54,153 nucleotides of DNA from Candidatus Wolfebacteria bacterium (GCA_002401345.1 NVSU01000005.1:1-54153); one strand, 5' to 3'. Numbered from the stretch's first letter, positions 27,972 through 44,935 are shown. The notes: generated by a model not told the origin, from the sequence alone. A program made the numbers and translations.

Positions 27972-28000
27972 AAACAGTCTCATATATGAGACTGTTTTTT
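27970..28000. terminator. Bidirectional terminator between convergent operons
   Basis: cagtctcat-at-atgagactg palindrome flanked by AAAAA and TTTTTT. Confidence 0.7.
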
Positions 28001-29522
28001 AATTAAGTGTGAGTGACCAAAGGTATGAATCGTTTTTATTTATGAATGTAAGATAGTTGTTGTCATGGGAGAGCGAAAGATTAGTTCCATCAATGTCTTC
28101 TCCAGCGTCAACTAATGGAGTGGCGAGTATAGTAGCTCTGTCGGTGAGTACATTTATCTCCCATAATGCATCTGAAAAACTAATTGCACCCTGATACCAG
28201 CTGTCAGGATAGACTGCTGACCCAATAGAGGTTGGCACTGAACAAAAGACTGTGATACTCGAAGATGACCACGTACATTTCTCAGGTAATGTAGCTACTG
28301 AAAATCGAGTTGATTGCCGGGTGTCTGTATTATACAAATATGTTTGTATAGAATTATCTAATGACTCGCTATAGAGAATAAGTTTTCCATTGGGACTTGT
28401 AAGAGTGGTAAGACCTGCGATGTCTCCTAGAAGTTTATCGAATGATTCTGTGTCAGGATCAAGTCTATAGGCAAATCCATGAACTAATCCAGAAGCTTTT
28501 GTAGTTAGTGTGATCATGCGGTCATTTGCCCACTGAGATATCCACTCAGAAAATTCTGAAATAAATATTTGTTTTTTGTTTTTGTTCTCAAATGTTGAGG
28601 TGAGTCCTATTGTATTAGGGCCAATTGTATTCATATAAAAGAATGATGATGAATCAGGTGACGCTGATATAGTAGAAACATTTTGAGGAAGAAATATTCC
28701 ATCGAGCTCACGTACACGGTCAGATTGTGTTTCTTCCTCCAGTATCCCTGAGAAAGACTCAATGGTTGATCTGTTGCTGCTTATATATCGAAGTACTATT
28801 GAATCTCCATTATTACCAAAGACCACTTCTTGTATCTTAGGAATTGTTGTATTTGAAATCTTTCTTTCTGAAATATCATCGAGAAATGTCTCATATATAT
28901 GACCGCTCGATTTTTTTACATATCGTACTGCAGCAACTGTTTCTATTTGAGGTCCATTTATTCCCTGGAATGCATTCAATGCAGCAAATGTATTTTTTCC
29001 AGCTATTCCATCGGCTACTAAGTTATTATTTTTTTGGAATGCTATAACTGCTGCTCTTGTTGATTCATCATATTCTCCAGAGAGTTCTAAATTGGGAGAT
29101 GGATCTTGTCTGTTTAATATTGTCTGAATGCTTTGTATTTCCTCTCCAGTACTTCCTAGACGCATAGTTTTAAATGATGAGACATCGATTGGCTGTTCGA
29201 TTTCCTCTTCTTTCTCGAGCACACGCTCTTTTGTGATTGTTGTCGCACCTGCTACTGCAAAAGATGATATTTTTGTAAGTTTTGAAATTATAGGCGCAGT
29301 TGTTGGGATTTCAATTTCAGTCACATCTATAATTTCTTCTTCTGGTTGGGTGACATCTATGAAGTCTTCTTTTTCTTCTCGTGAGCCAAACGGTAAAAAG
29401 TCTCTCATTTTAATCTCTTGCGCCTGTCTTTGGGAGCGTCCTTGAATAAGGGCTGCAATTGAGAATATTATGGCAAGCCCGACTATGATTGAAATTATTA
29501 TTATGATTGTTTTCTTAGGCAT
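27999..29522 (-). CDS. Membrane-anchored protein with a peptidoglycan-binding domain and a beta-rich C-terminal domain
   Basis: N-terminal TM. GSTGEEIQSIQTILN...DESTRAAVIAFQKNNNLVADGIAGKNTFAAL resembles the PG_binding_1 domain. Last gene of the T4SS-like operon. Confidence 0.6.
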   Translation of the reverse strand: MPKKTIIIIISIIVGLAIIFSIAALIQGRSQRQAQEIKMRDFLPFGSREEKEDFIDVTQPEEEIIDVTEIEIPTTAPIISKLTKISSFAVAGATTITKERVLEKEEEIEQPIDVSSFKTMRLGSTGEEIQSIQTILNRQDPSPNLELSGEYDESTRAAVIAFQKNNNLVADGIAGKNTFAALNAFQGINGPQIETVAAVRYVKKSSGHIYETFLDDISERKISNTTIPKIQEVVFGNNGDSIVLRYISSNRSTIESFSGILEEETQSDRVRELDGIFLPQNVSTISASPDSSSFFYMNTIGPNTIGLTSTFENKNKKQIFISEFSEWISQWANDRMITLTTKASGLVHGFAYRLDPDTESFDKLLGDIAGLTTLTSPNGKLILYSESLDNSIQTYLYNTDTRQSTRFSVATLPEKCTWSSSSITVFCSVPTSIGSAVYPDSWYQGAISFSDALWEINVLTDRATILATPLVDAGEDIDGTNLSLSHDNNYLTFINKNDSYLWSLTLN

Positions 29523-29540
29523 ATATAAATCAGTTTATCA

Positions 29541-32261
29541 TTAAAAATCAACTATTAAATTTCCTCCTTCTGCGCCAAATTTACTAAAGTGCATAGGATC
29601 TTTTTTTCCGGTCCAATTACCTCCCCATCCCCAACCCTCTGTTGTATTTGCAAATAGTTGCCAAAAAGGAGGATTTTGACCATCCATGTCTGTTTTTAGT
29701 TTTGTTTTAAATGGGTTTGTTTTTTGATTTATATCGAGTGCGAGTCCAAATGCATGTATAGACATTTTATCAGTTCCCCTAATAATACGACAACTGAAAC
29801 TCCCGATAGTATTTACCTTATAGTAATTATTGCCTCCCAAATTTTTCCACCTTTGATCTATTGCAGTTAAACTTTTAACTACACCTTTGTGTACAGTCAC
29901 TTGTTTTTCGAATAACGTAATGGTTTGCAAGTCTCCTCGTATGTCTGCACAATTATTACTTGTATTTGAGTTCAATAATACAGATGATCCATCTTTATTT
30001 ATTACTGCAAGTGATGTTCCTCTTGTAACACCAAACCCCGGTTCATTTTTTGGATCAATATTTATAAAGGCCTTTCTAATACCAAGATTCAAATTAACCA
30101 AGTCGGGATTTATAGTGAAGAGTATTGCAAAGGCACCGAGCGCAAGAAGAAGGCCTCCAATTGCTGATGTTATCCTCTTTTTCGCCTCACCCTTTGCAAG
30201 TATAGATTCTTCCATCATGTATTGGATTCCACCCATAACAATCATGACAACTGCGAGCACACCTGCTATTCCAATTAATAGTTTAAATATAAGTTCGAAA
30301 TATTTACCAAGCTTATCAGCAGATGTATCGATAGTTCCATCTGTACCAGGTAAGGGTGCTAAAAGAGTATACGGACCACTTAGATCAAATGTTATATCTC
30401 CAGGCAGGGGACCAATTTCGGGTGATTCGATTTTTTCTAAGGACCAATCCTGCCAACATCCACCTCCTAGAAGTGATACATCAGCTGAAGAGGGGTCGCA
30501 ATTATAGTTGAGTTCCCCATTTGGTTTTCCTTGAGATATGTATGTAGCAATAGGAGCTGGTCCTGTGACCTTAATATAGTATTGACACTCTGGACTCCCT
30601 GCTCTGTCACACTCGTCTTCTCCTGCAAGGAGACTTATAATTGTCTTTTCTAGAAAAGAACCCTTGTCTTCCGGTATTATTTTTATAATTCCATCATCGC
30701 CGATTGTATCATCTACAATGTTATCTCCAGCTGCAATAAATGTATCATCCTCCCATATTGAGACGCTTAATTCTTGTCCGACACAATTGATAGTTTCTAT
30801 CTCAAGATTGACTTTTGGATGGTTTGCATCATCAAAAAAAGTATCTTCGTTAACATGACTGGGGCTAAATTCAGCAGATACAACACTACATTGACCAGTC
30901 AATGCTGCATCAGGAATTTCATCAGGAGAGTTAACTTGTACACACTCACTCACGGCTGCGATGGTTATACCGTACGCACCACTAGTAACAATGTTTTCTA
31001 TAGCTGCCGAGCATTCATCTCTTGTATCAAATCCTCCTTCTGAGGTGATTTGCGAATTAAAATCTATTTTTTTAAACCACCATTTTAATCCTCCAATAAC
31101 TTTCCATCCAGTTCCACATAGACCATCACAATCGTACGATATAGTTCCATCAGCTTTTCGCTTAGAAGAAAATTCTTCAATACCGCTTCCTGTTATTTTT
31201 GCATAATATGATGCATCTGGATCAACAGATAAATCACCCTGGAAGTCTCCTGCCCTTAATTTTATTTCTAGTTTATTATTTAGAGGAACTTTGATATTTC
31301 CAATGGTTTTTGCAATATCATCATCTGAGTCATCGGTTTCATCAGTTTCATTATCTATTTCCCATAATCGAATAAATATCAACTCATCTTCACAATTGCG
31401 TGTCTCGATAGTGAGGAGAACTTCAGGCTGATTATCTTCATCCATGAAACTTGTTTTAGGGGGAGGGTTTGTGTCATCAGATGGAGTAAATGTTGCTGAT
31501 AAGATTTTACATACAGTAGTAGTGTCTGCGAGCGCATCGGTGAGTAAAGACAATACTATCCCTTCTCTGTCTCCACCAGTATTATTTCCAAGCAATTTAA
31601 AAAAATATGTTTTATTCGGGTTGAGATTTGTAATAGTTTCGCTAATATTTCCAGAGCCATTTCCGCGGGATATAAGATTGGTTGTGCTGGATGGAGTGTT
31701 GTTCTCATTAAATATTTGGGACCCAGATTTTATTGTTCCATATTCAAATGCTGTATCCACCCCGTCTTTTTTAAAGCCATTGTCACTCCAAAAACCATTT
31801 AATGTTGCAGAAGTTGTAGTTACATTTGTTGCTGAAAATGTTTTGATAATTGGAGGAGGTGCCAGTGTTACAAATTGATGCGGTGGGTCAACAAATATTT
31901 GTGCGGGTGAAATCGCATCATTTTTAACAGTGAAATAGTAGAGAGTGTCCGAGTCAAGTGCAGTTAGGTTTTTAGTTATAGGGATGCCTTGTGCAGCTAT
32001 GGAACCTTTAAATACAGAGGCTTTTTGAGTGAGCGAGGATTTGCTTGTTCCATAATATATATTTATATCTACATCAATTCCTCCTGATGGAAATAGATTA
32101 AAATTAATTCGTGCCGAATTATGAGTTTCTTCAGTTACTGACAGATTGATTATTTGCCCCTGCGCAAAAGCTGTAGAATGAGCCGCGAAAAAAAATACAA
32201 CCATCAGTGCTACGAGAAGAATAGTACGATATATGGTTGTCGGATGAAAAGAAAATCTCAT
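29541..32261 (-). CDS. Multidomain secreted/membrane protein: FN3-like modules, two Cys-containing repeats, a T4SS-pilin-like 2-TM module and an M15 (LAS-family) peptidase
   Basis: LLAPLPG...LIGIAGVLAVVMIVMGGIQYM...AIGGLLLALGAFAILFTINP resembles the CPR TrbC/VirB2-like pilin module. The C-terminal HAFGLALDIN...WGWGGNW...DPMHF resembles M15 / VanY-type metallopeptidases. Confidence 0.6.
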   Translation of the reverse strand: MRFSFHPTTIYRTILLVALMVVFFFAAHSTAFAQGQIINLSVTEETHNSARINFNLFPSGGIDVDINIYYGTSKSSLTQKASVFKGSIAAQGIPITKNLTALDSDTLYYFTVKNDAISPAQIFVDPPHQFVTLAPPPIIKTFSATNVTTTSATLNGFWSDNGFKKDGVDTAFEYGTIKSGSQIFNENNTPSSTTNLISRGNGSGNISETITNLNPNKTYFFKLLGNNTGGDREGIVLSLLTDALADTTTVCKILSATFTPSDDTNPPPKTSFMDEDNQPEVLLTIETRNCEDELIFIRLWEIDNETDETDDSDDDIAKTIGNIKVPLNNKLEIKLRAGDFQGDLSVDPDASYYAKITGSGIEEFSSKRKADGTISYDCDGLCGTGWKVIGGLKWWFKKIDFNSQITSEGGFDTRDECSAAIENIVTSGAYGITIAAVSECVQVNSPDEIPDAALTGQCSVVSAEFSPSHVNEDTFFDDANHPKVNLEIETINCVGQELSVSIWEDDTFIAAGDNIVDDTIGDDGIIKIIPEDKGSFLEKTIISLLAGEDECDRAGSPECQYYIKVTGPAPIATYISQGKPNGELNYNCDPSSADVSLLGGGCWQDWSLEKIESPEIGPLPGDITFDLSGPYTLLAPLPGTDGTIDTSADKLGKYFELIFKLLIGIAGVLAVVMIVMGGIQYMMEESILAKGEAKKRITSAIGGLLLALGAFAILFTINPDLVNLNLGIRKAFINIDPKNEPGFGVTRGTSLAVINKDGSSVLLNSNTSNNCADIRGDLQTITLFEKQVTVHKGVVKSLTAIDQRWKNLGGNNYYKVNTIGSFSCRIIRGTDKMSIHAFGLALDINQKTNPFKTKLKTDMDGQNPPFWQLFANTTEGWGWGGNWTGKKDPMHFSKFGAEGGNLIVDF

Positions 32262-32264
32262 ATA

Positions 32265-33260
32265 TTATCTATTGAGGAACATACTAAATAAAGATGAATC
32301 TGATTGGAAAAGTTTTGAAAGACTTTTTATACCTAATGAAATCTCTGCTACACCTCCTGTGTCTCGGTCAAATTGAAGTGACAGTACATTTTTTGTAGAC
32401 TGTGTTTGAGTTGTTTCATTATTGAGCTTCCAGGAATAAATGAAATCAGAGTCGACTGCATTTTTAGATGAGAAAAAGAATGGTTCTGCGACAATTGTCA
32501 CTTGATTTGTGCGCGGTGTAAAGCCTCTGTCGAGTGAAAAGGTATAATTTGTTCCTTCTAGTTCAGAGTCTTCATAAAAAAGAATTTGAGGAGAACGCAA
32601 TTGAATTGCGACTTGTCCTAATCCTTTTGAGCTTTGATTTAATCTTGAGACTTCAACCCCAATGGTCTCTACGTCGTCCAAATAGTCATTTTTAAATGTG
32701 TAACTTTTTCTGCCAAACCCCGAGCTATTTTGAATGTTCTGAAAATTCTTTTTCCAATTATAGACCAAGTCAGATGACTTGATTTGACTTGACCCTAGTG
32801 AGAGTGAAGGTAGTGCAACTACTTTTATTTGAGTTTCAGATGTAGGGAGGGCTTTTCCTTTATAAAATGGTGGCACATAAGAATCTATTGCTTCCCACAA
32901 AAGATCTACGCTCGTTGGCCTAATTGTTATCTGCTTTGTGATGAGCTTTCCTGTGCTCACTGTGATGGCGATATCTACAAGGGTAGTTGATCCCAGAGCA
33001 CCAGATTTTACCGTAAAACTTTTTCTACCGATACCTTGCAACTTTGTATTTCCGTCTACTTTCCATGTAATAGACGCCCTATTTAAATCAAAACTAAACG
33101 TCGAAACTGTAATGGAAACGTCTTCAAATGCATCAGGAGAGCTCGGGAAAAGAGATACTGCAACAGTACTGTCTTGAGTCTGTCCAAAGGAGACCAATGG
33201 CATTAATAATGCCAGTAGTACAAGTAGTGTATATATAGAGTTGTGTAGACGCATATTCAT
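32265..33260 (-). CDS. Secreted hypothetical protein
   Basis: 331 aa with a signal-like N-terminus, beta-rich. No family recognised. Confidence 0.5.
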   Translation of the reverse strand: MNMRLHNSIYTLLVLLALLMPLVSFGQTQDSTVAVSLFPSSPDAFEDVSITVSTFSFDLNRASITWKVDGNTKLQGIGRKSFTVKSGALGSTTLVDIAITVSTGKLITKQITIRPTSVDLLWEAIDSYVPPFYKGKALPTSETQIKVVALPSLSLGSSQIKSSDLVYNWKKNFQNIQNSSGFGRKSYTFKNDYLDDVETIGVEVSRLNQSSKGLGQVAIQLRSPQILFYEDSELEGTNYTFSLDRGFTPRTNQVTIVAEPFFFSSKNAVDSDFIYSWKLNNETTQTQSTKNVLSLQFDRDTGGVAEISLGIKSLSKLFQSDSSLFSMFLNR

Positions 33261-33263
33261 TAT

Positions 33264-33941
33264 TTATTCTAGTTCTTTGTGAGCCTCTTCTTCCAGTTTC
33301 TTTATTTCTTCTTCCAGTATTTCAATTTTTTTGATTTCATCTTGAAGTTTTGTGTCTATGTGTTGCAGATCTTTGATTTCTTTTATGTCTTGTCCGAGCT
33401 CTTCCTTTAATTTTTTTAATGTGTCGAGTCCGGCGCGAACATCACTCTCATCATTTTGAATTTTAGATAGTATTTTATCGTGAAGTGCTTGTAGGTCATC
33501 CACTTTCTTCTTAAAGTTCGTTAGTTGTATTTCGGGGATACTCGTATCCGCTATAGACCCTATCTCTTTTTCTACTTGTGCCTCTAATTCTTTTATTTCA
33601 GTAGCAGTATCCTCTCCAGTCCGCTTCGACGAAGCTTCAGCGAGGCGAGTTGATGGAGGGGTCGCTACCTCTTCACTGGGTACAGGCTGTGTGGCAGTTT
33701 CAGGGATAATTATGTTATCAGCGTCTCCGCCAGCCCGCTTCGACTCAGCGAGGCGAGCTGGTGGATGAGTCTCTTCTGCTTTATCAGGTGTTGGTTGTGC
33801 AGGTGGTGGTACATTTGCATCAGCCTGCTCAGATGGCGCAGTTGTTTCTTTGGATGGTTGATTTTCATCAACAAATTCTACGTCAGGCGTAGTATCGGCA
33901 GTTGTATCAGTTGGAATTATTTTATTGTTATCATCATTCAT
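33264..33941 (-). CDS. Acidic Pro-rich / coiled-coil protein carrying two in-frame palindromic elements
   Basis: 225 aa, no signal peptide. PPARLAESKRAGG and PPSTRLAEASSKRTGE are encoded by the GC-rich palindromes. The C-terminal heptad-like EEEIKKLEEE is shared with the VirB4 tail. Confidence 0.5.
   Translation of the reverse strand: MNDDNNKIIPTDTTADTTPDVEFVDENQPSKETTAPSEQADANVPPPAQPTPDKAEETHPPARLAESKRAGGDADNIIIPETATQPVPSEEVATPPSTRLAEASSKRTGEDTATEIKELEAQVEKEIGSIADTSIPEIQLTNFKKKVDDLQALHDKILSKIQNDESDVRAGLDTLKKLKEELGQDIKEIKDLQHIDTKLQDEIKKIEILEEEIKKLEEEAHKELE
33614..33658. repeat. In-frame GC-rich palindromic element, copy with degenerate outer arms
   Basis: Core ccgcttcgacgaagcttcagcgaggcga is identical to the reverse complement of the core at 34239-34266. 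Confidence 0.8.
33727..33764. repeat. In-frame GC-rich palindromic element, 38-nt variant
   Basis: ccgccagc-ccgcttcgactcagcgaggcga-gctggtgg. Lacks the central 6 nt (gaagct) relative to the 44-nt form. Confidence 0.8.
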
Positions 33942-34007: not shown

Positions 34008-36179
34008 TTAAAGGTTTTTAAATTCTTCTTCAAGTGTTTTAATTTCATCCTCTATTTGCTGTTTGGTTGTTTCCATTTGTGCTATGCGACCTTTTTTCTT
34101 TTGTGGAGTGGGTTTCTTCTTTATGGGCGCTATTTCAGTGTCTGCGACTGGTATGGGTGTAGGTTGTTCGGGTGGTGCACTTTCTTCTGCGGTGACGGGT
34201 TCTTCTGTAATTTCAGGTTCTTTTTCTTCTCCGCCAGCTCGCCTCGCTGAAGCTTCGTCGAAGCGGGCTGGCGGATTTTCTTCCCTAGGTGGTGTTTCTA
34301 TTTCAGGGACAATAAGTTCCGGTTCCTCGAGTTCTTCTGCAGCTTTTGCTTCTGCGAGCTCCCTTTTAGCTTTTTGAATAGTGAGGAGTTGAGATGGATC
34401 TGAAGTGATAATTTGATCCTCAGTATATGAGGCGATGATTTTTATTGCGACGTGTTTCAATCCAGCAAAGAAAATTCCCTCACCAATATCAGATTCCAAT
34501 AGAAGAAACTTTTCTTCATCAGTGAGACTAAAGGTCTTTTGAAGAAGATCAATTGCACTAGGAGATTGTTTCAAGAGCAATTGAAGTGAAGAGTTTGTAA
34601 CAATTGGAACTCCATAAGGTGACTTCATAAAGTCCCCTACGTCCTGCGTAATAGTTGCGAGACCTAAAAAATATTTTCGGCCACGTTTTGCAATACTATA
34701 GAGGAACGATGCGGTGTCTTCTGATTTCATCATCCACCATGCCTCATCAACTACAAGTAGTCTTTTTTTCAAATTTTTTCGTACTGCATTCCAAATATAG
34801 TGAGTAATAATGTACATCGCTGCTGGCTTCAGCTCGTCTTCCATATCTCTCACAGAGAATACGATAAATTTTTTATTTATATCAATATTAGTTGGTTGGT
34901 TTATGAACTGAGCCCATGATCCCTTTGTATATTTACTGAGTCGCTGAACAATTGACTCACTTCCCTCCATTCCTGAGAGTACAAGTTCAAAATCTGAAAG
35001 CAGAGGGGGCTCAATGGTTGCAAAGTCTGACTCAGGTGTAATATCTTTAAGTGCATAGGTTTCGGAAATAGCTCGATCAATAATAGAGTCTTCTTCAGGA
35101 GTAAGACCACCAAGCATGATTCTAAAGAGCCCTACAAGTTGAATAATATTTGACCGTAATACGTCGGAAGGTGTCTCGTCTTCTCGTGGTGGTGGTAGGT
35201 CAAAGGGATTTATATGGTGCTGTGAAGACAGTGACATATTGAAATATCGGCCCCCCACAGCCTCAACAAGATAGGTGTACTCTTTCTCAGGGTCAATCAC
35301 AATCACATCTGTATCAAACATAAGTGATCTCAGTATCTCTAGTTTTGTTGCATAGCTTTTTCCTGCACCTGACTTTGCAAAGATGATCGAATTGTAATTT
35401 TCTAATGAAAATCTGTCAAAAATAACTAAACTCGCATTATGTCTATTTACTCCATAAAGAATTCCTTTATCTGAGGTGAGGTCAAATGATACAAATGGGA
35501 AAATACTCGACAGGGGTTCAGAATTTAGCTTTTGGTGCACCTTCAGTAAGTCTGTGCCTGTGGGAATCACACTCTTAAATCCTTCTTCTTGTTGGAAAAG
35601 TGCAGGTTTAATATATACAAGCTTTGCATCAAGGATTGATTTGATTTCATTTTCTATCTTAAAGAGTTCGGTTTCGTCATCTGCATAAATAGTTATATAG
35701 AGTCCCACTTCAAATATTTTTTGCTGAGCTTGTTGCAATGTATCACGCAATGATTCCAGGTCTTGGAATGCAGTATCAAGAATCGGATCTCGTACAAGTC
35801 CTCGCGCTCGTCGTGCATTGATCTGACTTTGCACTTCAGCAACTTTCTTCTGAAATTGTTTTAATATTTTTGCAGTATCAACTGGGTGTATAAAAATTGA
35901 AATATCGAAAATTTTATCAAGATTTATGATTGGAGAAAACCAATTATCTGTTAAAAAACGAGGATATGAAATAACAAAAAAGGTTCGAGCAATTTTTTCT
36001 CCTAGATTGAGAGATTTTGCATCTATCTTCAGTGCTGAAGGTGCAATAATATCCTGAAGCTCGAGCTTTGCTGCCTCATAAATATCTTCTGGAAGCACAG
36101 GAAGTACTGTAGGTTCTGGAGCGTGCACTCCTCCCTTTTTCTTTCCTATTTTTTTAAAAATGTTGTCGAATAGTGCCAT
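34008..36179 (-). CDS. virB4: VirB4-family T4SS ATPase (C-terminal two-thirds of a Gram-positive-type VirB4) with a disordered / coiled-coil tail
   Basis: IAPSALKI..RTFFVISYPRFL, Walker A KSGAGKSY, Walker B LLVVDEAW. Start set at ATG 36179 because the track start at 36200 is a GTG inside an inverted-repeat element. Confidence 0.85.
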   Translation of the reverse strand: MALFDNIFKKIGKKKGGVHAPEPTVLPVLPEDIYEAAKLELQDIIAPSALKIDAKSLNLGEKIARTFFVISYPRFLTDNWFSPIINLDKIFDISIFIHPVDTAKILKQFQKKVAEVQSQINARRARGLVRDPILDTAFQDLESLRDTLQQAQQKIFEVGLYITIYADDETELFKIENEIKSILDAKLVYIKPALFQQEEGFKSVIPTGTDLLKVHQKLNSEPLSSIFPFVSFDLTSDKGILYGVNRHNASLVIFDRFSLENYNSIIFAKSGAGKSYATKLEILRSLMFDTDVIVIDPEKEYTYLVEAVGGRYFNMSLSSQHHINPFDLPPPREDETPSDVLRSNIIQLVGLFRIMLGGLTPEEDSIIDRAISETYALKDITPESDFATIEPPLLSDFELVLSGMEGSESIVQRLSKYTKGSWAQFINQPTNIDINKKFIVFSVRDMEDELKPAAMYIITHYIWNAVRKNLKKRLLVVDEAWWMMKSEDTASFLYSIAKRGRKYFLGLATITQDVGDFMKSPYGVPIVTNSSLQLLLKQSPSAIDLLQKTFSLTDEEKFLLLESDIGEGIFFAGLKHVAIKIIASYTEDQIITSDPSQLLTIQKAKRELAEAKAAEELEEPELIVPEIETPPREENPPARFDEASARRAGGEEKEPEITEEPVTAEESAPPEQPTPIPVADTEIAPIKKKPTPQKKKGRIAQMETTKQQIEDEIKTLEEEFKNL
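34231..34274. repeat. In-frame GC-rich palindromic element, full 44-nt form
   Basis: ccgccagctcgcctcgctgaagcttcgtcgaagcgggctggcgg folds into a stem of about 22 bp with 2 mismatches. 32 of 44 nt are G/C by my count. Encodes NPPARFDEASARRAGGEEK. Confidence 0.85.
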
Positions 36180-36189
36180 AAATATTTTA

Positions 36190-36320
36190 GCATCTAGCAC
36201 CTAGGCACTAGCATCTAGTTTCGTTATTAATAAATGTAACATTTTTATAATTTTATTATTGATTTCTTTCATATTGAATTTAATTTTAAGGCTAGTTGCC
36301 AGTCGCTAGTGCCTAGGTGC
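36190..36320. repeat. Decayed four-helix-bundle cassette (inverted-repeat-bounded relic)
   Basis: Perfect 16-nt inverted repeat gcacctaggcactagc (36197-36212) / gctagtgcctaggtgc (36305-36320). The interior keeps a 23-codon remnant MKEINNKIIKMLHLLITKLDASA, which resembles the last helix of four-helix-bundle proteins. Confidence 0.65.
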
Positions 36321-37413: not shown

Positions 37414-37827
37414 TTCTTTTTCTTTCATATCCAACACATCAAGACTCCATGAAATATCTTTTAATCTGCCTTCAGAGAGCCGAGGAATATACGCTTTCTC
37501 TGATATTTCCTTTTCTTCTGGTGTAGGTTGTGTCGCAGCCTTCTTTTTTTTGCTCTTTTTCCATATATAGAGTTTTCCCTGAAAAAGGTATTTTACGTAG
37601 GCTTCAAGAATGTATATAAACGGTTTATTGTTTATCTTATAGAACGTAAGTGCCAAAGAAAGTGATACCACAGGAATGATTATAAGTATGGCAATAAAAT
37701 TTGGAAGTACTTTGAATGCAACAAAGGATATTCCCGCACCCCCAATCAAATAGACAAACTGTTTGAACGTAAATGGTCCAAAGATTTTGTCTTCTATATC
37801 AATAAATTGTGGAACTCTAAATCTCAT
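37408..37827 (-). CDS. PrgI-family (VirB3-like) T4SS membrane protein
   Basis: VPQFIDIEDKIFGPFTFKQFVYLIGGAGISFVAF followed by a second TM helix. Confidence 0.7.
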   Translation of the reverse strand: MRFRVPQFIDIEDKIFGPFTFKQFVYLIGGAGISFVAFKVLPNFIAILIIIPVVSLSLALTFYKINNKPFIYILEAYVKYLFQGKLYIWKKSKKKKAATQPTPEEKEISEKAYIPRLSEGRLKDISWSLDVLDMKEKEQ

Positions 37828-38005: not shown

Positions 38006-38010
38006 TTTTA

Positions 38011-38802
38011 CTATTCTTGAATTCTTTCTCTGTAGGGATCTTGCGTTGGTCCTGTGTCTGAATAATCATGAGTCTCTCTTTTTAGTGTAAACGGCTCTTT
38101 TAATTTTTTCTCGACAATACTCTCTTTTGGAGTTGCTAATAGGGGTTCTTCCGTATGTGTTGGTATCTCTTTTTTTAAATCTTGTTGTAATGGAACGGTC
38201 GTCTGTTGTGGTAGTGGAACATATGAATTTTTCTTTGATTGTATTTTGACTCCAGAGGATTCCAATATTTTTTCATCTTTTGTGTCTATGGTCGGTATAT
38301 TTTTTTGAAGAGTAATGTCCTCTTGTGTCTCAGTCGCAACAATATCTATACCCGTTTTTTTTAATACCCCAATGTCCTTTGAAGGGAGATGCGATGGAGT
38401 AGTTGAAGGGAAATCTTCTTCCAATAATCGTTCAATATCTTCATCAGTGATATCAATTTCTGGTTTTTTCTGTGGAACTTCTGGTTCACCATGGAGATGT
38501 TTAAGTGCACTTCTAATTTTTTCAAATACTTGTGTGTTTATGTCATTAACAATCTGATCAACCTGTGTTGAAGAGAGGGATAGTGTACGCTTAAGATTTT
38601 TTGCAAAGTCTTTTGGATGGGACAGGCCGAGAATTATTAAATTACTTTCATAGACAAGTTTTCCAATATCAGAAACTGTAAGAGTGTGTTTCTTTCCTAT
38701 AGAGAGGATTTTTTCTCCCACACTTGCATCAAGAACCGCAGATCGTACATCATCTGGGAGCTTGCTAAATTTTTCAGTTATTTCTTTGCTTGAAAGTTTC
38801 AT
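38011..38802 (-). CDS. Hypothetical protein (no signal peptide)
   Basis: 263 aa. The N-domain ..ILSIGKKHTLTVSDIGKLVYESNLIILGLSHPKDFAKNL.. and C-terminal DPYRE resemble a domain I recall from other CPR hypothetical proteins. Confidence 0.45.
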   Translation of the reverse strand: MKLSSKEITEKFSKLPDDVRSAVLDASVGEKILSIGKKHTLTVSDIGKLVYESNLIILGLSHPKDFAKNLKRTLSLSSTQVDQIVNDINTQVFEKIRSALKHLHGEPEVPQKKPEIDITDEDIERLLEEDFPSTTPSHLPSKDIGVLKKTGIDIVATETQEDITLQKNIPTIDTKDEKILESSGVKIQSKKNSYVPLPQQTTVPLQQDLKKEIPTHTEEPLLATPKESIVEKKLKEPFTLKRETHDYSDTGPTQDPYRERIQE

Positions 38803-38825: not shown

Positions 38826-41285
38826 TTATTTCTTAGCTGAGTCTCCACTTTTTTTTGCTGAACCAATTTTTTCCTGGAGTTTTTCCTTTTGATCCTTCTT
38901 CTTTTCTATTTTCTCTTCTAACTTCTCTTGCGTGTCAATTATCGTTTCCATGCCTTTTATTTCTTGTTCTGCTCTCAGTATTTCCACCCTTGTTTCTGTC
39001 ATCTTTTGTTTGTCCCTTTCGTCGCCAGTGTTTTTGTATGCTACCTCGATAGTTTGTAATTGATTGTTTAATTCTGTTAATCGAGTTTGTTTTTCTGAAA
39101 CATCATAATTTATTTGCTCTTTTATTTGGGCTCTGGTGAGTGTATGTAGCTCCTCTGGTTTAATGTTATTTCGAAGCGCAGCATTAGTCTTAATTTTAGT
39201 GAGTATCTTATTTCCTTCTTTAACATCTATGTCAATATCTTCAATGTCATTGTCTAATTTTTTAATTGCCTTTTTGTAAGATTCCACTTTGTCAGTTGCA
39301 AGACCTTTTCTAAGTTCTAAGGCTGCACGTAAGTCACCTTGTGCAGCAAACGCAGCAGCCGGACCAGTAGGTGAAACCTTGCTAATAACTCCCAAGTTTT
39401 TAAGTAGAACCTGTGATGTACCAGCTTCAAGCGTATTAGCATAGTCAGTTTGACGTTGTTCATTAATTTTCTTTGAAGTGCTGACTTCAGGTGATCCAGT
39501 GATGGCTTCTCCCTTTACCGTTAATGGTTCCCCTTTTGTATAGGCATCTTTAAATTCTTTTTCATTAAAGATTTGCCCCTTGCCTTCAGTTTCTTCACGA
39601 GCATCATCTCTCATGTCTCCATAGGCTTTTTCCCAATTTCTGGCATTTTGATCTTGTCGAGCAGCCTCAAGTCCTTTCATTTTTATTTGTTCAAATAGAT
39701 CCATTCGTTCCTTCCTCCTTTCTTCGACACGTCCTTCATATCCACCTACTCCCGCGGCAGCTCCAAGACCAACTCCCTGCAGTACTCGATTATCAAGATT
39801 GATTCCACCCGCTCCAGCAGCTTCTGAAACCCCAGGAGCTTGGCGTATATCAAAACTTGCACCTCGTAGATAATTTGCTAATCGTAGCTTAGTCCGTGCA
39901 CCAAATTGTCCTTCAGCAGCAGCTTGTTGAAGTCCTTTACTCTCAGCTGCACCAGCAGCAGCTAGACCAGCTGTACTACGTAGGGCGAGGCCTCCTACTC
40001 CTGCAGCTGCACCAAGGGCAGCACCTCCAACGGCACCGACTTTTTTAGCTGCAGCTGTTACTACCTTACCGGCTTCACCTGCAAGATTTTCTGCAAGTTT
40101 TTTTGCCATGATAAGGAGCATGGCAATAATAGAGAGCGGGAATACTATATTTAATACTGCTTGAACTGTCGATAGATTCTCTCCCTTGCCAAATGCACTT
40201 CCAATAATATCAGTCTCAAGGAACATTACGATTAAAAAGAGGAAGAAAATAAAGACAGGAGCTAGAAAAGAAAGCTTGAGGAGATTTCCCCACCATTTTT
40301 GTTGAAAGTCACCTATTTGCGGGATGGCGTATGAGATAAATGCGAAAGGAGCAGAGATCATTACAATCCATAATCCAAGTGTACGGGCAATAAAAAGAAT
40401 TGCGACAGTAAAGAATACCCAAATGGCGACTATATTTATACCTGCAGCAAGTAAAGACACAAGTGAGAAAAAGGATGCATAGGCATCTCTACTCAAGCCC
40501 CTCGCTGTTAATATGCTTGAGGTAGGATCATTACTCACACGTTCAATGTTTGGCCCTGACGCAACTTGTGCAAAAAGTTTTTGTGGTTCAAATTTTGATA
40601 TGACGGCAATAGAAATAGACTTTGCTCCGCTGACTTTTACAAATTCTGCAGGACCGGTGACTTCTATCGCATTATAGAAAATCCTCGCAACGATATTTGA
40701 GCTATCAACAACAACTTTGGTGAAAAAGAGACTAAAGTTTATAAGAAGCGCGACTACCACAACATTTGCAATGGTTCTTTTTGTGTCAGCACCAGCGATG
40801 CCCAATATTGTTTTTATTGCTACAAATACAAGTATGAATATAAAGAGAATATTGGAGATATCCCTTGTGATCTTCCATCCTTCTGTAATAAATGAGGTGC
40901 CAGTATATGATGCACTATCAAGAGTGTAGGCAAGAGTAAAGTCCAAAAATTTTCCAATAAGCGCGAGAATAAATGCAGTAGGAACAAAAAGAATGTAGTA
41001 GATCACCTGCGCAATACATCCCATAACACCTCCTTGAGTGTCTTCACCAAATAAGTCACATGCGGGAAGTACGTTTTCATCTTTCGCAGGGTCAGTGTCA
41101 TCAAATTCACCTGTATGAGTGGCATATGCGACATTGGTGTGTACTGTGGGAGTGAGAGAAGTTGGGTGAATTGAAACAGAGACCGGAGAAAAGAAACCAA
41201 AGATAAATACCACAGCAAATACAAGAATGGCAAATTTTTTACCAAGTGTACTCTTATGTGTAGTTTTATTTGTTTTATTGTTCAT
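38826..41285 (-). CDS. Polytopic membrane protein, VirB6/TrbL (Tn916 Orf15)-like, with an Ala/Gly-rich segment and a K/E-rich coiled-coil tail
   Basis: 819 aa. Signal/TM, then about 7 hydrophobic helices. Position relative to prgI/virB4 fits the channel subunit. No sequence motif proof. Confidence 0.5.
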   Translation of the reverse strand: MNNKTNKTTHKSTLGKKFAILVFAVVFIFGFFSPVSVSIHPTSLTPTVHTNVAYATHTGEFDDTDPAKDENVLPACDLFGEDTQGGVMGCIAQVIYYILFVPTAFILALIGKFLDFTLAYTLDSASYTGTSFITEGWKITRDISNILFIFILVFVAIKTILGIAGADTKRTIANVVVVALLINFSLFFTKVVVDSSNIVARIFYNAIEVTGPAEFVKVSGAKSISIAVISKFEPQKLFAQVASGPNIERVSNDPTSSILTARGLSRDAYASFFSLVSLLAAGINIVAIWVFFTVAILFIARTLGLWIVMISAPFAFISYAIPQIGDFQQKWWGNLLKLSFLAPVFIFFLFLIVMFLETDIIGSAFGKGENLSTVQAVLNIVFPLSIIAMLLIMAKKLAENLAGEAGKVVTAAAKKVGAVGGAALGAAAGVGGLALRSTAGLAAAGAAESKGLQQAAAEGQFGARTKLRLANYLRGASFDIRQAPGVSEAAGAGGINLDNRVLQGVGLGAAAGVGGYEGRVEERRKERMDLFEQIKMKGLEAARQDQNARNWEKAYGDMRDDAREETEGKGQIFNEKEFKDAYTKGEPLTVKGEAITGSPEVSTSKKINEQRQTDYANTLEAGTSQVLLKNLGVISKVSPTGPAAAFAAQGDLRAALELRKGLATDKVESYKKAIKKLDNDIEDIDIDVKEGNKILTKIKTNAALRNNIKPEELHTLTRAQIKEQINYDVSEKQTRLTELNNQLQTIEVAYKNTGDERDKQKMTETRVEILRAEQEIKGMETIIDTQEKLEEKIEKKKDQKEKLQEKIGSAKKSGDSAKK

Positions 41286-41319
41286 TTTGTCTACTAACTA
41301 TTTGCTACTTTCTGTGTAT

Positions 41320-41357
41320 CCCGACGTAAAGTCGGGACCCCGACTGTAGCGTCGGGG
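41320..41357. repeat. Tandem GC-rich hairpins (REP-like)
   Basis: cccgac-gtaaa-gtcggg, then a, then ccccgac-tgtagc-gtcgggg, in the intergenic spacer of the operon. Confidence 0.7.
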
Positions 41358-41365
41358 CTATTCTC

Positions 41366-43642
41366 CTAATATATCCGTATTTCGTCTTCCCATCTCGAAA
41401 AATTTTGACTAGTAGACAAGCTTATCTCTAGTGTATCGAGGCTGTCTTGATCTGTTATTCCAGATGTATCAGGCTTGTCATTTGGAAGGAATGTACATCC
41501 GAATCCTGGAATAGGATTGAAACAACCTCCAACTCCAGGATAGTCTCTTCGCTCTGCGGGATATATATTTGGATTGTAATTTGGATTAACTGGAGCAGTT
41601 TGAGCAGTACATTGTAAGTTAAGAAACTCAATATATGTGTTATCTGTGCCTAGATTTTCTCTGTCAGCTATTACATTTTTTATGGCTGCAGTGTTTGCGA
41701 GTTGTGGTGCGATTCTGATAAATCGAGTTCTGAGCAGATTAAATTCTTCTACTTGAGTTTCATCAGCTATTCCATCATTCACAAGTGTTTGAACTTCAGC
41801 CAATAGGAATTCCAATTTGATACGTTCTCTGTTGGCAAGTGTTATTTTTTGAGAGTTTACACTTTGTACTTGATCATATTCCTCTATTCTTCTCACCTCA
41901 GTAATAGATTCTTCTACAAAGATAAATCCACCATCAAATATGTTTTGAGTAGAAAATCTATTAGCTATGAGTTGTGCATAGTCTCTAAGGAACGTATTGT
42001 ATGCAGTTGTAATGTTTATAATAGCTTGCTGTTTTTTCTCCGTTATTGTTTGTCCAATAATAGGGATGACTTCCCATCCACTAAAATTCCCATTAATAGC
42101 ACTAGCAATTTCTTGTGTTCGTTCAATAGTTCTCACTTGCGCTCTTTGAAACCATGTAGGAGTTGGTCCAGGAATACAATAATCGAGTGAACGTAGACCA
42201 GCTCCAAGTACACCTAGTTCAGTGTTGTAGGTGTTCAATTCAGTAACATAATCAAGTTGATTTTGAATAAGTGTTGGCAGTTCGTCTACAAGACTCAGGG
42301 TTTCTTCTGGAGCTGTGCCAAGGTGATCTATAATACCTTGATCGTCAAAGCTGGTTCCGAATACATGTCCCCCAAAGGTACCTGAGCTTGTTGTGACAGC
42401 ACCGTCATCTGTAAATTCGATTTGAGAAAGTCCTTCTTGAATAAGTTGATTTAGAAGTGCATCAATCATGGCTGAAATTACTTCATTGAGCTCATCAGCA
42501 AGCTCAAGCTGATTTTGTTTTGAACCGAGCGTAATATTTGCTTGATGTGCAATTGTTTGTCCGGGTGTTGCATTAGCCCAGCGTGCACAGTTTTGATCAT
42601 CCCAATCAATATTTGGATTTGTGACATTGTCTTTGTCTAATACACAGAGTTTTGTAGAAAGAAATCCATTACCTTGATTAAGTTCATCTCGGAATTGTTC
42701 AGCAAGAGAAAGTCGTGTTCCTCTGGTTCTGCGAAGATTTTCTTGGGCAGTTATGAAGCGAAAGCCAATCGGGTTGTTTTGTGGCAGAAGTGTCATCGCA
42801 AGCCATGCACCCCAGCCCCCCACTCTAAAGTCTGCATTAAAATCAGTATGATTAAATCCCTCTAAGAGAACTTCATTTAAGGTAAAGCGTGCATTTCTCT
42901 CGAATTGAAACGTTATAGAATTTTTTAATGATGCGGCAACCTCAGCGCCAAATGGATAATTGATAGGATCAAACCCAATTACGCTTACCAATCCATTTAC
43001 TTCTCTTTTGTACAGATTTTCAAAAAAAGATTGAGGATTTTCTAAAAATAATGGTTGTCCTTGAAAACCATTGTTGATCCATGCGATGGTCTGCACTCCA
43101 AGCTCTCGTACGAGTTCTTTTGCTGCAAAGAATGCAATCGCATCCAAACATGTTTCCTTATTATTTGCTGCTACTTCTTCCTTTTGTATTTTTTTGTTTA
43201 TTTTTTTGATGTTTTTAGCTATTTGATTACCTGTTCGTTGTGCTGCTATTGCCCCTGCGTCATGTGTGGGTACGCTTGTACCGGCAATATTAGTTACAGT
43301 TCCAGCAAGATTTGTTCCTATTATTCCTGTAAGACTTTCATCAATTCCGAGTTCTTCAATTTCATCTACAGGGAACACTGGTAGATCATCACCTCCAAAA
43401 AAATCTTTTATACCCCCTATACCACCTGCACATCCTAGAATAGTAGTTGCAAGACCGCCAAGTGAGACATTTCCCAACACACCAGTTCCACCACCAAATG
43501 TACCAGCTCCACCAGCTCCAAATGTACTTATAGATTGAGCATGCACAGGATATGACGGAACAAGTAATAGAGATGGAACAAGTATTCCTATCATGAAAAT
43601 AAATGAAGTAATTTTTTTTGTTTGTGTTTTTATTTTTATCAT
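41366..43642 (-). CDS. Large secreted hypothetical protein
   Basis: 758 aa. Signal peptide (..SYPVHA-Q), Gly-rich N-terminal segment, no recognised domain. Confidence 0.5.
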   Translation of the reverse strand: MIKIKTQTKKITSFIFMIGILVPSLLLVPSYPVHAQSISTFGAGGAGTFGGGTGVLGNVSLGGLATTILGCAGGIGGIKDFFGGDDLPVFPVDEIEELGIDESLTGIIGTNLAGTVTNIAGTSVPTHDAGAIAAQRTGNQIAKNIKKINKKIQKEEVAANNKETCLDAIAFFAAKELVRELGVQTIAWINNGFQGQPLFLENPQSFFENLYKREVNGLVSVIGFDPINYPFGAEVAASLKNSITFQFERNARFTLNEVLLEGFNHTDFNADFRVGGWGAWLAMTLLPQNNPIGFRFITAQENLRRTRGTRLSLAEQFRDELNQGNGFLSTKLCVLDKDNVTNPNIDWDDQNCARWANATPGQTIAHQANITLGSKQNQLELADELNEVISAMIDALLNQLIQEGLSQIEFTDDGAVTTSSGTFGGHVFGTSFDDQGIIDHLGTAPEETLSLVDELPTLIQNQLDYVTELNTYNTELGVLGAGLRSLDYCIPGPTPTWFQRAQVRTIERTQEIASAINGNFSGWEVIPIIGQTITEKKQQAIINITTAYNTFLRDYAQLIANRFSTQNIFDGGFIFVEESITEVRRIEEYDQVQSVNSQKITLANRERIKLEFLLAEVQTLVNDGIADETQVEEFNLLRTRFIRIAPQLANTAAIKNVIADRENLGTDNTYIEFLNLQCTAQTAPVNPNYNPNIYPAERRDYPGVGGCFNPIPGFGCTFLPNDKPDTSGITDQDSLDTLEISLSTSQNFSRWEDEIRIY

Positions 43643-43660
43643 AAAACGCAGACTATTTTG

Positions 43661-44572
43661 TTAAAGTATACCATTTTGAGCAAAGTAATTATTGAGTTTT
43701 TCAGCAGAGGAGACAAAAATATCACTTGAAGATCGATAGCGTGCAATCCCACTAATTCCGACGACTGGATTTGAAAATATTTGCTTCATATCTTCGATTG
43801 ACGCACCGATAGCAAGTGCTCCATTCACCAAATCTAAATGTGTTGACTGAATAGCTGTGGGAACTGAAATATTTTTGCTCTCTTTTGCAAATGACACGTA
43901 TGCCAGACCCAATTCTTGAAGTTGGGTAATGACAGTTTTGTCTCCTGTTTGGATTGCGAGTGCTAAAAGTTCAAGTTCAGATCCAAGATTAGAATTTTTA
44001 TAGTTCGCTCGGACAGTATCCAAGTCTTCTTTATACGTACTCGTATTTGTTGACGAAGAAGAAACTGTAGTGAGGTCTGTGAGAGCGTAGCTTAGTGGAG
44101 TGTCCCCAGATAAAATAGAGTCACTTAGAGAATTTGAGAGATCATTGATTGACTCCTCAGTTAATCCACCAGACTGTTGAAGCGCAATAACAGTTGTGAA
44201 AAATTCTCGAGCAAATGTTTCGGTTTCATTTAGGTCACCATTTATTTCGGAGCCATTTTGTACTGAAGGAAGTTCTTGTCGTCGGGCTTCAATTTCTTCT
44301 CCATCAAGAGTTCCGTCATTGTCTGTGTCGGGATTAAATGGGTCAGTCCCCCATAGAGATTCTTCCCAATCTTTGAGACCATCTCCATCTGTATCTGCTT
44401 CGATCACATCTCCAAATTCTACCGCCTCAAGTGACGCAGTCGGGATGCGATTGTTTTTGAAAGAGATTTTTTTACTACTTCCGAGATTGAGCAATAAAAA
44501 AAGTATCACTAGTACTACTAATGATGAAAGTGCAATGAGTATAAATTTTTTACTCGGTAAATAGTTGTTCAT
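43661..44572 (-). CDS. Membrane-anchored protein with thrombospondin type-3-like calcium-binding repeats
   Basis: N-terminal TM. DTDGDGLKDWEESLWGTDPFNPDTDNDGTLDGEE. Confidence 0.55.
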   Translation of the reverse strand: MNNYLPSKKFILIALSSLVVLVILFLLLNLGSSKKISFKNNRIPTASLEAVEFGDVIEADTDGDGLKDWEESLWGTDPFNPDTDNDGTLDGEEIEARRQELPSVQNGSEINGDLNETETFAREFFTTVIALQQSGGLTEESINDLSNSLSDSILSGDTPLSYALTDLTTVSSSSTNTSTYKEDLDTVRANYKNSNLGSELELLALAIQTGDKTVITQLQELGLAYVSFAKESKNISVPTAIQSTHLDLVNGALAIGASIEDMKQIFSNPVVGISGIARYRSSSDIFVSSAEKLNNYFAQNGIL

Positions 44573-44584
44573 AATAAGTTATGA

Positions 44585-44935
44585 CTATCGCATCGATACA
44601 CCAAAGAGTGTAATTGAAAATGTTGGGACAGGTACTGGAGGAGTAGTAGTTGTAAAACATGACCCAGGAGTTAATATAGGATTATAGAGACCCAATATCC
44701 ATTGCCCAGGTGAAACAACTTTTTTAGTTGCAGTAATTATGTAGGGGGCAGGGGGAAATAAGGCTACAGGGACAATGGCGATGACTCCATGTTGAGCAGC
44801 ACACTTTACTCCAGGTATTTTGGTCGAAATGATTTTCCCTCCGAATGGTCTAAGGAGACTTTGGGCAAATGTAGTTTGTGCGACAAAAAATATTGTGAGC
44901 GCAATAAAAAAAATCGTAAATTTGGATGTGTTCAT
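44585..44935 (-). CDS. Small secreted protein (first gene of the T4SS-like locus)
   Basis: 116 aa. Signal ..AQTTFA-Q. Two Cys and a Pro-rich C-terminus. Confidence 0.5.
   Translation of the reverse strand: MNTSKFTIFFIALTIFFVAQTTFAQSLLRPFGGKIISTKIPGVKCAAQHGVIAIVPVALFPPAPYIITATKKVVSPGQWILGLYNPILTPGSCFTTTTPPVPVPTFSITLFGVSMR

Follow-up and report, generated by a model that had tools for sequence, protein, structure and literature searches.

The window analysed here is a whole 54,153-nt stretch of DNA from a Candidatus Wolfebacteria bacterium (GCA_002401345.1 NVSU01000005.1:1-54153), and all positions count along it. Between 27999 and 44935 it holds 13 open reading frames (ORFs), all co-oriented on the minus strand and separated by gaps of 3-183 nt; an initial annotation of this DNA had described the run in the same terms, and its coordinates are confirmed. 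In order of transcription, the ORFs encode a small secreted protein (p116), a protein with thrombospondin-type-3 repeats (TSP3_303), a secreted or anchored protein (p758), a polytopic candidate for a VirB6-type channel (B6_819), a soluble protein (p263), a PrgI/VirB3-like protein, a 23S-rRNA-IVS protein, a TrsD-like protein, a VirB4 ATPase, a coiled-coil protein (cc225), an exported protein with predicted beta-sandwich domains (p331), a pilin-hydrolase fusion protein, and a peptidoglycan-binding protein with a probable beta-propeller (PGB507, the propeller protein). This block, the subject of the present report, is read as the locus of a type IV secretion system (T4SS). The strong bidirectional terminator that had been predicted at the end of the run is also present: a bidirectional, intrinsic terminator at 27970-28000 lies between jag (plus strand) and the last T4SS gene (minus strand). 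Its 13-bp stem is flanked by A and T runs and folds equally well on either strand (z = -6.3 and -6.7).

Conserved core and chromosomal position

Related loci were collected by a VirB4 scan of one genome per GTDB species, which confirmed 580 relatives; the best 80 were used as related loci in the comparisons below. In these 80, VirB4 is 77-82% identical over amino acids (aa) 8-620, and the metagenome-assembled genomes concerned are labelled Nomurabacteria, Paceibacterota, Paceibacteria or Parcubacteria. Membership of the Patescibacteria VirB4 clade was judged by this pairwise identity as a proxy (77-82% to 80 Paceibacteria/Nomurabacteria), and the source genome is a member of the Paceibacteria ('Nomurabacteria'). 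By tblastn, one collinear block recurs across the 80 species, running from KsgA through an optional p116, the TSP3 protein, p758, the VirB6-type protein, p263, PrgI, TrsD, VirB4, p331 and the pilin-hydrolase protein to the propeller protein, followed by Jag, YidC and RnpA on the opposite strand and then by DnaA and DnaN. Many third-party assemblies titled 'uncultured Candidatus Saccharibacteria bacterium' (L001, L014, L015, L019 and others) carry a VirB4 that is ~80% identical and a locus collinear with that of Nomurabacteria/Paceibacteria; on these Paceibacteria-like assemblies the titles are probably generic mislabels.

Presence was counted out of 80 loci, many of them truncated by the end of a contig. 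The TrsD-like protein was matched by tblastn in 80, PrgI and p331 in 75 each, the pilin protein in 69, the propeller protein in 68, the VirB6-type protein in 63, p758 in 45, p263 in 42 and the TSP3 protein in 37. Ten genes form a conserved core, and the genes for p116, cc225 and the 23S-IVS protein are sporadic. Median identity in the related loci is 79% for VirB4, 62% for TrsD, 50% for PrgI, 40% for the propeller protein, 35% for p331, 34% for the VirB6-type protein, 30% for the TSP3 protein and 29% for p758. Identity declines from the cytoplasmic toward the surface parts, and the ectodomains are hypervariable, a pattern that fits a surface meeting a varying host. In the same loci, the VirB4 median of 79% compares with 67% for DnaA and 60% for DnaN, a comparison biased by the choice of loci by VirB4 similarity.

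Four T4SS parts had been recognised in the initial annotation, namely a VirB4, a PrgI/VirB3-like protein, a polytopic VirB6/Orf15-like protein, and a pilin-like module of two transmembrane (TM) segments fused to an M15 hydrolase. Profile searches bear out all of these except the VirB6 assignment, which stands in part: the protein is polytopic and its orthologues reach T4SS membrane families, but Pfam and the PDB are unsupportive. The VirB4 ATPase (34008..36200, minus strand) retains intact Walker A (GAGKSY) and Walker B (LLVVDEAW) motifs in its translation and matches TraG P-loop (2.6e-25) and AAA_10 (4e-10). Among solved structures, the VirB4 from Thermoanaerobacter, a Gram-positive bacterium, comes closest to it (4AG5, 1e-39), and R388 TrwK is matched at 7e-6. 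A C-terminal tail of ~110 aa, acidic and lineage-specific, is missing from most orthologues. The TrsD-like protein (36326..36967, minus strand) is related to the N-terminal domain of VirB4-family ATPases: it matches NCBIfam TrsD/TraD (1e-7), the Mbov_0397 VirB4 N-terminus (7e-10) and CD1110 VirB4-like (9e-6), all of them partial matches under the whole-protein cut-offs. BLASTP found no similarity between this protein and the window's own VirB4; the kinship shows in family profiles only.

The PrgI/VirB3-like protein (37408..37827, minus strand) is a two-TM hairpin whose match to Pfam PrgI (7.3e-10) reaches 39.7 bits against a curated cut-off of 27. Directly upstream of its gene lies that for p263 (38011..38802, minus strand), a soluble protein with no TM segment or signal peptide. 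Two conserved parts of p263, an N-terminal domain of ~100 aa and a DPYRE motif at the C-terminus, are joined by a variable linker; D255, P256 and Y257 of the motif are kept in at least 90% of orthologues. It gave no Pfam match and no significant PDB match in a profile search. A seeming p263-PrgI fusion in one relative (L053) is an artefact from a masked run of N.

The VirB6-type channel candidate, B6_819 (38826..41285, minus strand; 819 aa), is predicted to have ~6-7 TM segments. It contains a conserved pair of Cys residues and ends in a long coiled coil that is variable, and its conserved part spans aa 75-475. Its own best family match is to the CD3337/EF1877 "mobilome membrane protein" (E=0.097). 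Its orthologues match the MMCAP2_0566 conjugal transfer family in 14 of 44 cases (best 6e-9), the Mbov_0396 ICE TM family in 9 of 44 (7e-8) and CD3337_EF1877 in 4 of 44 (2e-4). Neither B6_819 itself nor a profile of the 44 orthologues gave a Pfam TrbL/VirB6 match or a PDB match.

As the initial annotation had noted, the locus lies a few kilobases from the origin region among housekeeping genes. On the left it is flanked by jag, yidC and rnpA, with dnaA (24269-25627) only 2.4 kb from the block and dnaN beyond it; on the right lie ksgA, an M23/LysM peptidase gene and a ComM-like gene. The 10 kb past the left window end also carry housekeeping genes. Within the 54-kb window, where ORFs of at least 100 aa were scanned, there is no relaxase, type IV coupling protein (T4CP), VirB11, integrase or tRNA, and no relaxase or T4CP occurs among the called genes of the 10 kb beyond the left end; beyond the right end, only a 4-kb contig was obtained. 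The reported absence of a relaxase, a VirD4/FtsK-type ATPase, VirB11 and an integrase therefore holds for the window and the 10 kb leftward, and those 10 kb likewise contain none of the genes (relaxase, coupling protein or integrase) that, if found just outside the window, would have made the locus an ordinary integrative and conjugative element (ICE). The VirB7/9/10 outer-membrane core and VirB11 found no Pfam or NCBIfam match, which sets the locus apart from diderm VirB/D4 (MPF-T) systems. The collinearity of the block in 80 species next to Jag-YidC-RnpA-DnaA-DnaN fits vertical inheritance, not recent acquisition. Thus, the picture of a Gram-positive-type T4SS core that is origin-proximal and not a recent ICE is strengthened by its collinearity in 80 other Paceibacteria species.

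Transcription of the T4SS operon heads for the dnaA-rnpA region and meets jag-yidC-rnpA in convergent orientation, an arrangement shared by the related loci. Two adjacent DnaA boxes lie at 25748-25767 in the dnaA-rnpA spacer. If the origin is in this spacer, the operon would be head-on to replication; GC skew is too weak to place the origin. Another DnaA box, a perfect one (44993-45001), precedes the operon's first ORF by ~60 nt; it is kept in 1 of 27 related loci and is treated as probably a chance occurrence.

The pilin-hydrolase fusion and the other exported proteins

One product of the block is a 906-aa protein (29541..32261, minus strand) that combines a signal peptide, an FN3-like domain, a duplicated Cys-rich ectodomain, a VirB2-like pilin module (aa ~650-722) and a Peptidase_M15_4 domain (aa 829-893, 7.7e-13). 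In the protein itself, the two-TM module (aa 655-714) gives a weak T4SS_pilin match (1e-3, below the cut-off) and a match to the pilin-like Mbov_0395 (1e-4). Among its orthologues, T4SS_pilin is matched in 42 of 44 (best 9e-10) and TrbC/VirB2 in 16 of 44. Only the two-TM module (aa ~625-725) is conserved over the 69 loci. A hidden Markov model (HMM) of the module finds a single such ORF in the window and in 66 of the 69 loci, with two in the remaining 3; this lineage has no stand-alone pilin array, unlike Saccharimonadia and Microgenomatia. The ectodomain before the module is variable, with a median of 147 aa across loci and ~650 aa in the window protein, and the tail after it has a median of 176 aa (184 aa in the window protein). 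Both the ectodomain and the enzyme domain are predicted to lie outside the membrane, given a topology of one cleaved signal peptide plus two TM helices.

The pilin module nearly always comes with a wall-enzyme domain, whose fold varies from species to species. Across 44 orthologues, it carries VanY in 8, NlpC/P60 in 8, Amidase_5 in 5, Peptidase_M15_4 in 4, YkuD in 4, SLT, SLT_2 and CHAP in 2 each, and SLT_3 in 1. Among orthologues checked individually, 7 of 10 have a wall-enzyme domain in the C-terminal tail, and in 6 of these 7 a pilin module was detected on its N-terminal side. Clustering by BLAST divides the 64 tails that reach 60 aa into no fewer than 20 groups, and the M15_4 version, common to only 3 of the 69 related loci, is a trait of a small sub-lineage. 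The window's hydrolase, as a Peptidase_M15_4, stands outside the VirB1-type class (SLT, CHAP/NlpC), whereas orthologues carry SLT, SLT_2, NlpC/P60, CHAP, VanY or YkuD in the same slot; it may act like VirB1 without belonging to that family. VirB2- and VirB1-type functions thus share one polypeptide in this lineage, the enzyme part of which has been exchanged repeatedly while VirB4 stayed ~80% identical. A further protein of 839 aa, encoded at 5396-7915, has FN3, purple-acid-phosphatase-N and DUF11 domains, and its FN3-like region resembles the N-terminus of the 906-aa protein (27% over 280 aa).

The exported part of the core comprises four more proteins. TSP3_303 (43661..44572, minus strand), the first gene product of the conserved core, has an N-terminal anchor (a TM-like segment at aa 4-38), calcium-binding thrombospondin-type-3 repeats (TSP3_bac, E=2e-7) and a domain of ~200 aa without a family; it is conserved at full length in its 37 loci, many of them cut by contig ends, and its profile found nothing significant in the PDB. 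The p758 protein (41366..43642, minus strand) is secreted or anchored; it contains a Gly-rich linker, its conserved core lies at ~aa 150-425, and it is syntenic in its 45 loci, as p263 is in its 42. Neither it nor its orthologues match Pfam, NCBIfam or the PDB. The p758 family is nevertheless large: a HMMER profile run against representatives of 50%-identity clusters gathers 5,220 sequences at E<=1e-3 and 1,668 at E<=1e-30. For p331 (32265..33260, minus strand), an AlphaFold2 (AF2) model built from an 83-sequence alignment (predicted local distance difference test score, pLDDT, 83) shows three Ig/FN3-like beta-sandwich domains in tandem behind a signal peptide. Foldseek matches this model only to generic three-Ig-domain proteins, the profile search against the PDB gave nothing significant, and none of the family's members, at least 769 in number, has a name or a Pfam domain. 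On the strength of its prevalence and of this model, p331 is a core component and a candidate for a wall-spanning stalk or spacer. Finally, PGB507 (27999..29522, minus strand), the product of the last gene of the block, has an N-terminal anchor and a PG_binding_1 domain (3.9e-14). Its aa 200-507 are conserved in 68 loci and the PG_binding_1 region (aa 125-182) is matched in only ~16. Weak PD40 beta-propeller matches occur in 6 of 46 orthologues, and the conserved C-terminal domain of ~300 aa is probably a beta-propeller; a profile search against the PDB gave no match.

The remaining three ORFs lie outside the core. The Cys-containing p116 (44585..44935, minus strand) has an N-terminal signal-like segment and is an optional accessory; it matches nothing in Pfam or NCBIfam and was found by tblastn in 5 of 80 loci. 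Of 27 loci, ~8 have a small ORF with a hydrophobic N-terminus in the space that separates ksgA from the TSP3 gene; in many loci, these two genes adjoin directly. The cc225 protein (33264..33941, minus strand), which has no TM segment, consists of a low-complexity N-terminal half followed by a coiled coil; it was matched by tblastn in 1 of 80 loci, with ~3 positional analogues, and is a lineage-specific accessory. The 23S-rRNA-IVS protein (36997..37380, minus strand; PF05635, 2.3e-32) is a four-helix bundle and weakly bAvd-like. Its gene occurs in 13 of 80 loci at three different positions in the block and looks like a sporadic insertion rather than a T4SS part.

For these proteins, the initial annotation proved right in several respects and wrong in others. 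The peptidoglycan-binding protein at the end of the run and the TSP3-repeat protein are as it had named them, and its view that the accessory proteins have no assigned function agrees with the finding that four large, conserved exported ones have no counterpart in the searched family libraries. The six proteins it called unknown were said to fill more than half of the coding capacity; the measured share is 37%. All six were also said to be secreted or membrane-anchored, which applies to four but not to the 263-aa and 225-aa proteins, neither of which has a signal peptide or TM segment. Two ORFs, those for the TrsD-like protein and the 23S-rRNA-IVS protein, it had left unnamed.

A palindromic element and neighbouring genes

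A 46-nt GC-rich palindrome lies in frame within the VirB4 C-terminal tail (34230..34275), and two degenerate copies (33612-33657 and 33726-33765) are both in the low-complexity half of the cc225 ORF. Its sequence is TCCGCCAGCCCGCTTCGACGAAGCTTCAGCGAGGCGAGCTGGCGGA, translated as NPPARFDEASARRAGGEE, and a similar peptide would result from translation of the other strand. The folding energy is -32.7 kcal/mol (z = -5.9). Compared with the only related VirB4 that has a comparable tail (L058), the palindrome is an 18-codon insertion. None of the 80 related T4SS loci contains the palindrome, which therefore does not belong to the T4SS as such. The source genome has a fourth copy just beyond the window (L202, ~16460-16490).

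The 23-nt core of the palindrome, CCGCTTCGAC(N0-8)TCAGCGAGGCGAG, is matched exactly on at least 120 metagenome contig stretches, of which 80 loci, with 29-59% G+C, were read in detail. Among 83 instances examined, 37 lie within stop-free frames of at least 200 codons, in several reading frames and both orientations; the others are in short frames and probably intergenic. The flanks are variable and often self-complementary. No Rfam family covers the copies in nine metagenome loci at E<=1, and an Rfam scan of the window at gathering thresholds gave zero family matches. Taken together, the palindrome has the behaviour of a small mobile element whose insertion in frame is tolerated, a putative assignment for which no mobilising enzyme was found. 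This behaviour is comparable to that of the Rickettsia palindromic elements (RPE).

Elsewhere in the window are genes for polA, tsaE, ruvB, ruvC, a tRNA synthetase and a class A penicillin-binding protein. A PilB-type assembly ATPase (12700-14484; T2SSE, 8e-116) adjoins four minus-strand ORFs without a family match (423, 176, 522 and 260 aa; region 8116-14484), which may be type IV pilus or other surface components. The M23 peptidase of the right flank (46490-47518), encoded on the opposite strand two genes from the T4SS block, has two LysM domains. The combination of M23 and LysM has been reported for some VirB1-like matches (Quinonero-Coronel et al., 2025; PMC12102498). An M23/LysM gene is found near virB4 in only 1 of the 80 related loci, so it is probably outside the system. 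A polynucleotide phosphorylase (PNPase) gene lies at 51699-53915, 7 kb from the T4SS; PNPase has been proposed in a 2026 preprint as the key enzyme for a life on host RNA in the phylum.

Known relatives and the possible role of the machine

The system is already published for this clade (Patescibacteria, very small bacteria that depend on a host), including the absence of a relaxase and the dnaA/ksgA/rnpA setting, and the present locus is a further instance. Quinonero-Coronel et al. surveyed 2,474 virB4 genes across Patescibacteria and described a distinct VirB4 clade related to MPF-FATA, with TrsD, PrgI, VirB6 and VirB2-like genes near virB4 and almost no relaxases; VirD4 homologues mostly lay at a distance from virB4 (PMC12102498). 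In Paceibacteria and Microgenomatia, dnaA, dnaN, rnpA, ksgA and rpmH lie near virB4, for which a gene-dosage effect was proposed, and VirB1-type hydrolases accompany virB4 specifically in Paceibacteria (PMC12102498). The window agrees with the Paceibacteria arrangement in all essentials. The text of that survey reports VirB2-like and VirB1-like matches near virB4 in Paceibacteria and, in the part available, does not state that both are one protein; nor did that part yield the ten-gene core, the exchange of domains in a one-polypeptide pilin-hydrolase, the Ig triplet of p331 or the size of the p758 family.

The best-studied relative is the T4SS of Southlakia epibionticum (class Saccharimonadia), whose gene cluster SEML1_0006-0019 is essential for epibiotic growth (Wang et al., 2023; PMC10633639). 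This cluster is nearest to Gram-positive conjugative systems, includes pilin genes and has no recognisable coupling protein or relaxase, and DNA movement was judged unlikely (PMC10633639). The two loci are thus alike in being chromosomal and Gram-positive-conjugation-like, with pilin genes within the cluster and neither a coupling protein nor a relaxase. The peptidase and lysozyme genes that follow virB4 closely in Southlakia are a further likeness, as is the place near the start of the annotation that the low locus-tag numbers of its cluster suggest. Where Southlakia has six divergent stand-alone pilins (PMC12857230), the window has a single module inside the 906-aa protein, and essentiality for growth on a host was shown in Southlakia only (PMC10633639).

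The monoderm MPF-FATA systems (pCF10 Prg/Pcf, pGO1 Trs, Tn916/CTn-type elements and the Mycoplasma ICE) share PrgI, TrsD and VirB4 with the window. They also provide the matches of the B6_819 orthologues (Mycoplasma ICE, CD3337/EF1877) and of the pilin-like module (Mbov_0395), and they have no outer-membrane core complex either. The window proteins and their orthologues link to Mycoplasma bovis ICE families with consecutive tags, Mbov_0395 (pilin-like), Mbov_0396 (membrane) and Mbov_0397 (VirB4), which fits the published MPF-FATA ancestry. In contrast to these systems, the window locus has no relaxase, T4CP or PrgB-type adhesin, holds a fixed chromosomal position with vertical inheritance, and includes the four large conserved exported proteins that the family libraries do not match. 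In MPF-FATA systems, the wall hydrolases (PrgK/TraG/CwlT-type) are separate anchored enzymes, whereas that of the window is fused to a VirB2-like module.

On this evidence, the locus is very likely a chromosomal Patescibacteria T4SS, derived from MPF-FATA, that serves as a host-interface conduit and not as a conjugation machine. The initial annotation had considered a secretion or attachment machine on a conjugation-type core plausible for an episymbiont, a reading that the profile matches of the core parts support overall. In the arrangement proposed here, VirB4, with the TrsD-like protein and perhaps the soluble p263, would be the only motor, at the cytoplasmic face, and PrgI/VirB3 and the polytopic VirB6-type protein would make up the membrane platform. 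The exported core (the TSP3 protein, p758, p331, the propeller protein and the pilin-hydrolase) would cross the cell's own wall and reach outward, and the externally placed cleaving domain of the pilin-hydrolase would open peptidoglycan locally, which is the job of VirB1. A short pilus- or stylet-like structure would then be assembled where the two cells touch, with no need for a coupling protein, and serve as the passage for material between host and symbiont.

Coupling-protein-less importers, such as the ComB system of H. pylori, show that a VirB4-only machine can import. Like the window, ComB and the archaeal Ced system have a VirB4-type motor without VirD4 or a relaxase, and they offer a precedent, compared by description, for inward transport (PMC12102498/PMC12857230). 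Both are otherwise unlike the window: ComB is a diderm VirB-type system that works with ComEC, and Ced is archaeal. A 2025 FEMS review also speculates on a conduit for uptake and notes that in Southlakia a comEC deletion is viable and the T4SS is essential (PMC12857230); any import would therefore not be classical transformation. A 2026 preprint describes tubular structures, maybe T4SS pili, at the host interface and reports that a cultured Patescibacterium takes up host RNA (bioRxiv 10.64898/2026.06.21.733656). Uptake of material from the host through the T4SS is accordingly where the analysis leans, by analogy and without quite reaching an even chance; the lean draws on the lack of a coupling protein in the locus, the VirB4-only importers, the phylum's reported dependence on host nucleotides and the host-RNA uptake of the preprint.

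A rather unlikely alternative is that the T4SS exports effectors, with proteins (toxins or wall hydrolases, for example) injected into the host cell or released, also onto its surface, in the manner of pathogen T4SSs and the Streptococcus suis 89K system. Most characterised non-conjugative T4SSs do export proteins, Wang et al. suggest that the system 'may instead export proteins' (PMC10633639), exporters without a T4CP are known in Ptl and Brucella VirB (PMC12102498), and the locus is rich in exported proteins, a hydrolase among them. These proteins, however, have Sec-type signals or anchors and need no T4SS to exit the cytoplasm, and the conserved accessory set, being collinear in 80 species, looks structural. 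The locus has neither a coupling protein nor a recognisable cytoplasmic effector; besides VirB4 and the TrsD-like protein, its soluble cytoplasmic proteins are only p263, cc225 and the sporadic IVS protein.

It is very unlikely that the block encodes an attachment organelle only, in which a fibre or an array of adhesins at the surface would keep the cell on its host without any translocation. Such an organelle would account for the hypervariable surface parts, with their Ig/FN3, TSP3 and propeller domains, and for the pilin-like module. A polytopic channel-type protein and an extremely conserved ATPase exceed the needs of adhesion, however, and most species have the pilin module fused to a wall hydrolase. 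The PilB-type ATPase of the window also points to type IV pili, which are documented adhesion and twitching devices of Saccharibacteria (PMC12206443). An ordinary ICE, or a decaying remnant of one, that transfers DNA can be set aside as scarcely credible: its core genes do descend from monoderm conjugation systems and a few Patescibacteria carry relaxases (109 in 103 genomes; PMC12102498), but neither a relaxase, T4CP, integrase or tRNA nor a break in composition occurs in the window, the block keeps one place and one gene order beside dnaA in 80 species, and 13 of 13 intact ORFs with a VirB4 ~80% identical across species are the opposite of decay, so that fixed position, intact genes and strong constraint together argue against a recently acquired or decaying mobile element.

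Several points weigh against the conduit reading itself. A coupling protein could sit elsewhere in the genome, as the scan covered the window and 10 kb, and in many Patescibacteria VirD4 homologues do lie far from virB4 (PMC12102498). No VirB8-like protein was recognised in the locus, and the candidate VirB6 assignment is carried by NCBIfam matches of the orthologues, with neither Pfam TrbL nor a solved structure behind it. A pilin with ~650 aa at one end and 184 aa at the other may not polymerise, and the pilin hairpin could be a mere membrane anchor or docking device. The roles of the accessory proteins are all read from domain content and predicted topology. For p758, the largest conserved protein without a named family, there is no usable model: AF2, from a 9-sequence alignment, gave a mostly helical prediction with a pLDDT of 43, a repeated homologue search from a 35-sequence alignment returned the same 9 proteins, and the poor model was not fold-searched. 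Finally, the direction of transport and the substrate of the conduit are predictions.

The conduit reading can be sharpened into a bolder picture, which we regard as a long shot. Here, the pilin-hydrolase, with an ectodomain that varies with the host, would form a cutting stylet together with p758, p331 and the propeller protein. A VirB4 working without a coupling protein would drive this stylet through the host wall and bring in RNA or other macromolecules of the host as food, and exchange of the enzyme domain would suit the stylet to the wall chemistry of each host.

The T4SS of Patescibacteria is among the few machines that have been shown to be essential for epibiotic life in a very large and mostly uncultured branch of the bacteria. 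The window locus adds no new kind of system; what it adds is a ten-gene core, a pilin-hydrolase fusion with swapped enzyme domains, and a palindromic element. For Paceibacteria, this provides a parts list of ten conserved genes, four of which encode large exported proteins without a known family. If the tip of the machine has to suit a host's wall, one would expect just this combination of a nearly constant motor with an enzyme domain that varies from species to species. The swapped enzyme domains would offer a direct way into host specificity, through their action against host and self peptidoglycan.

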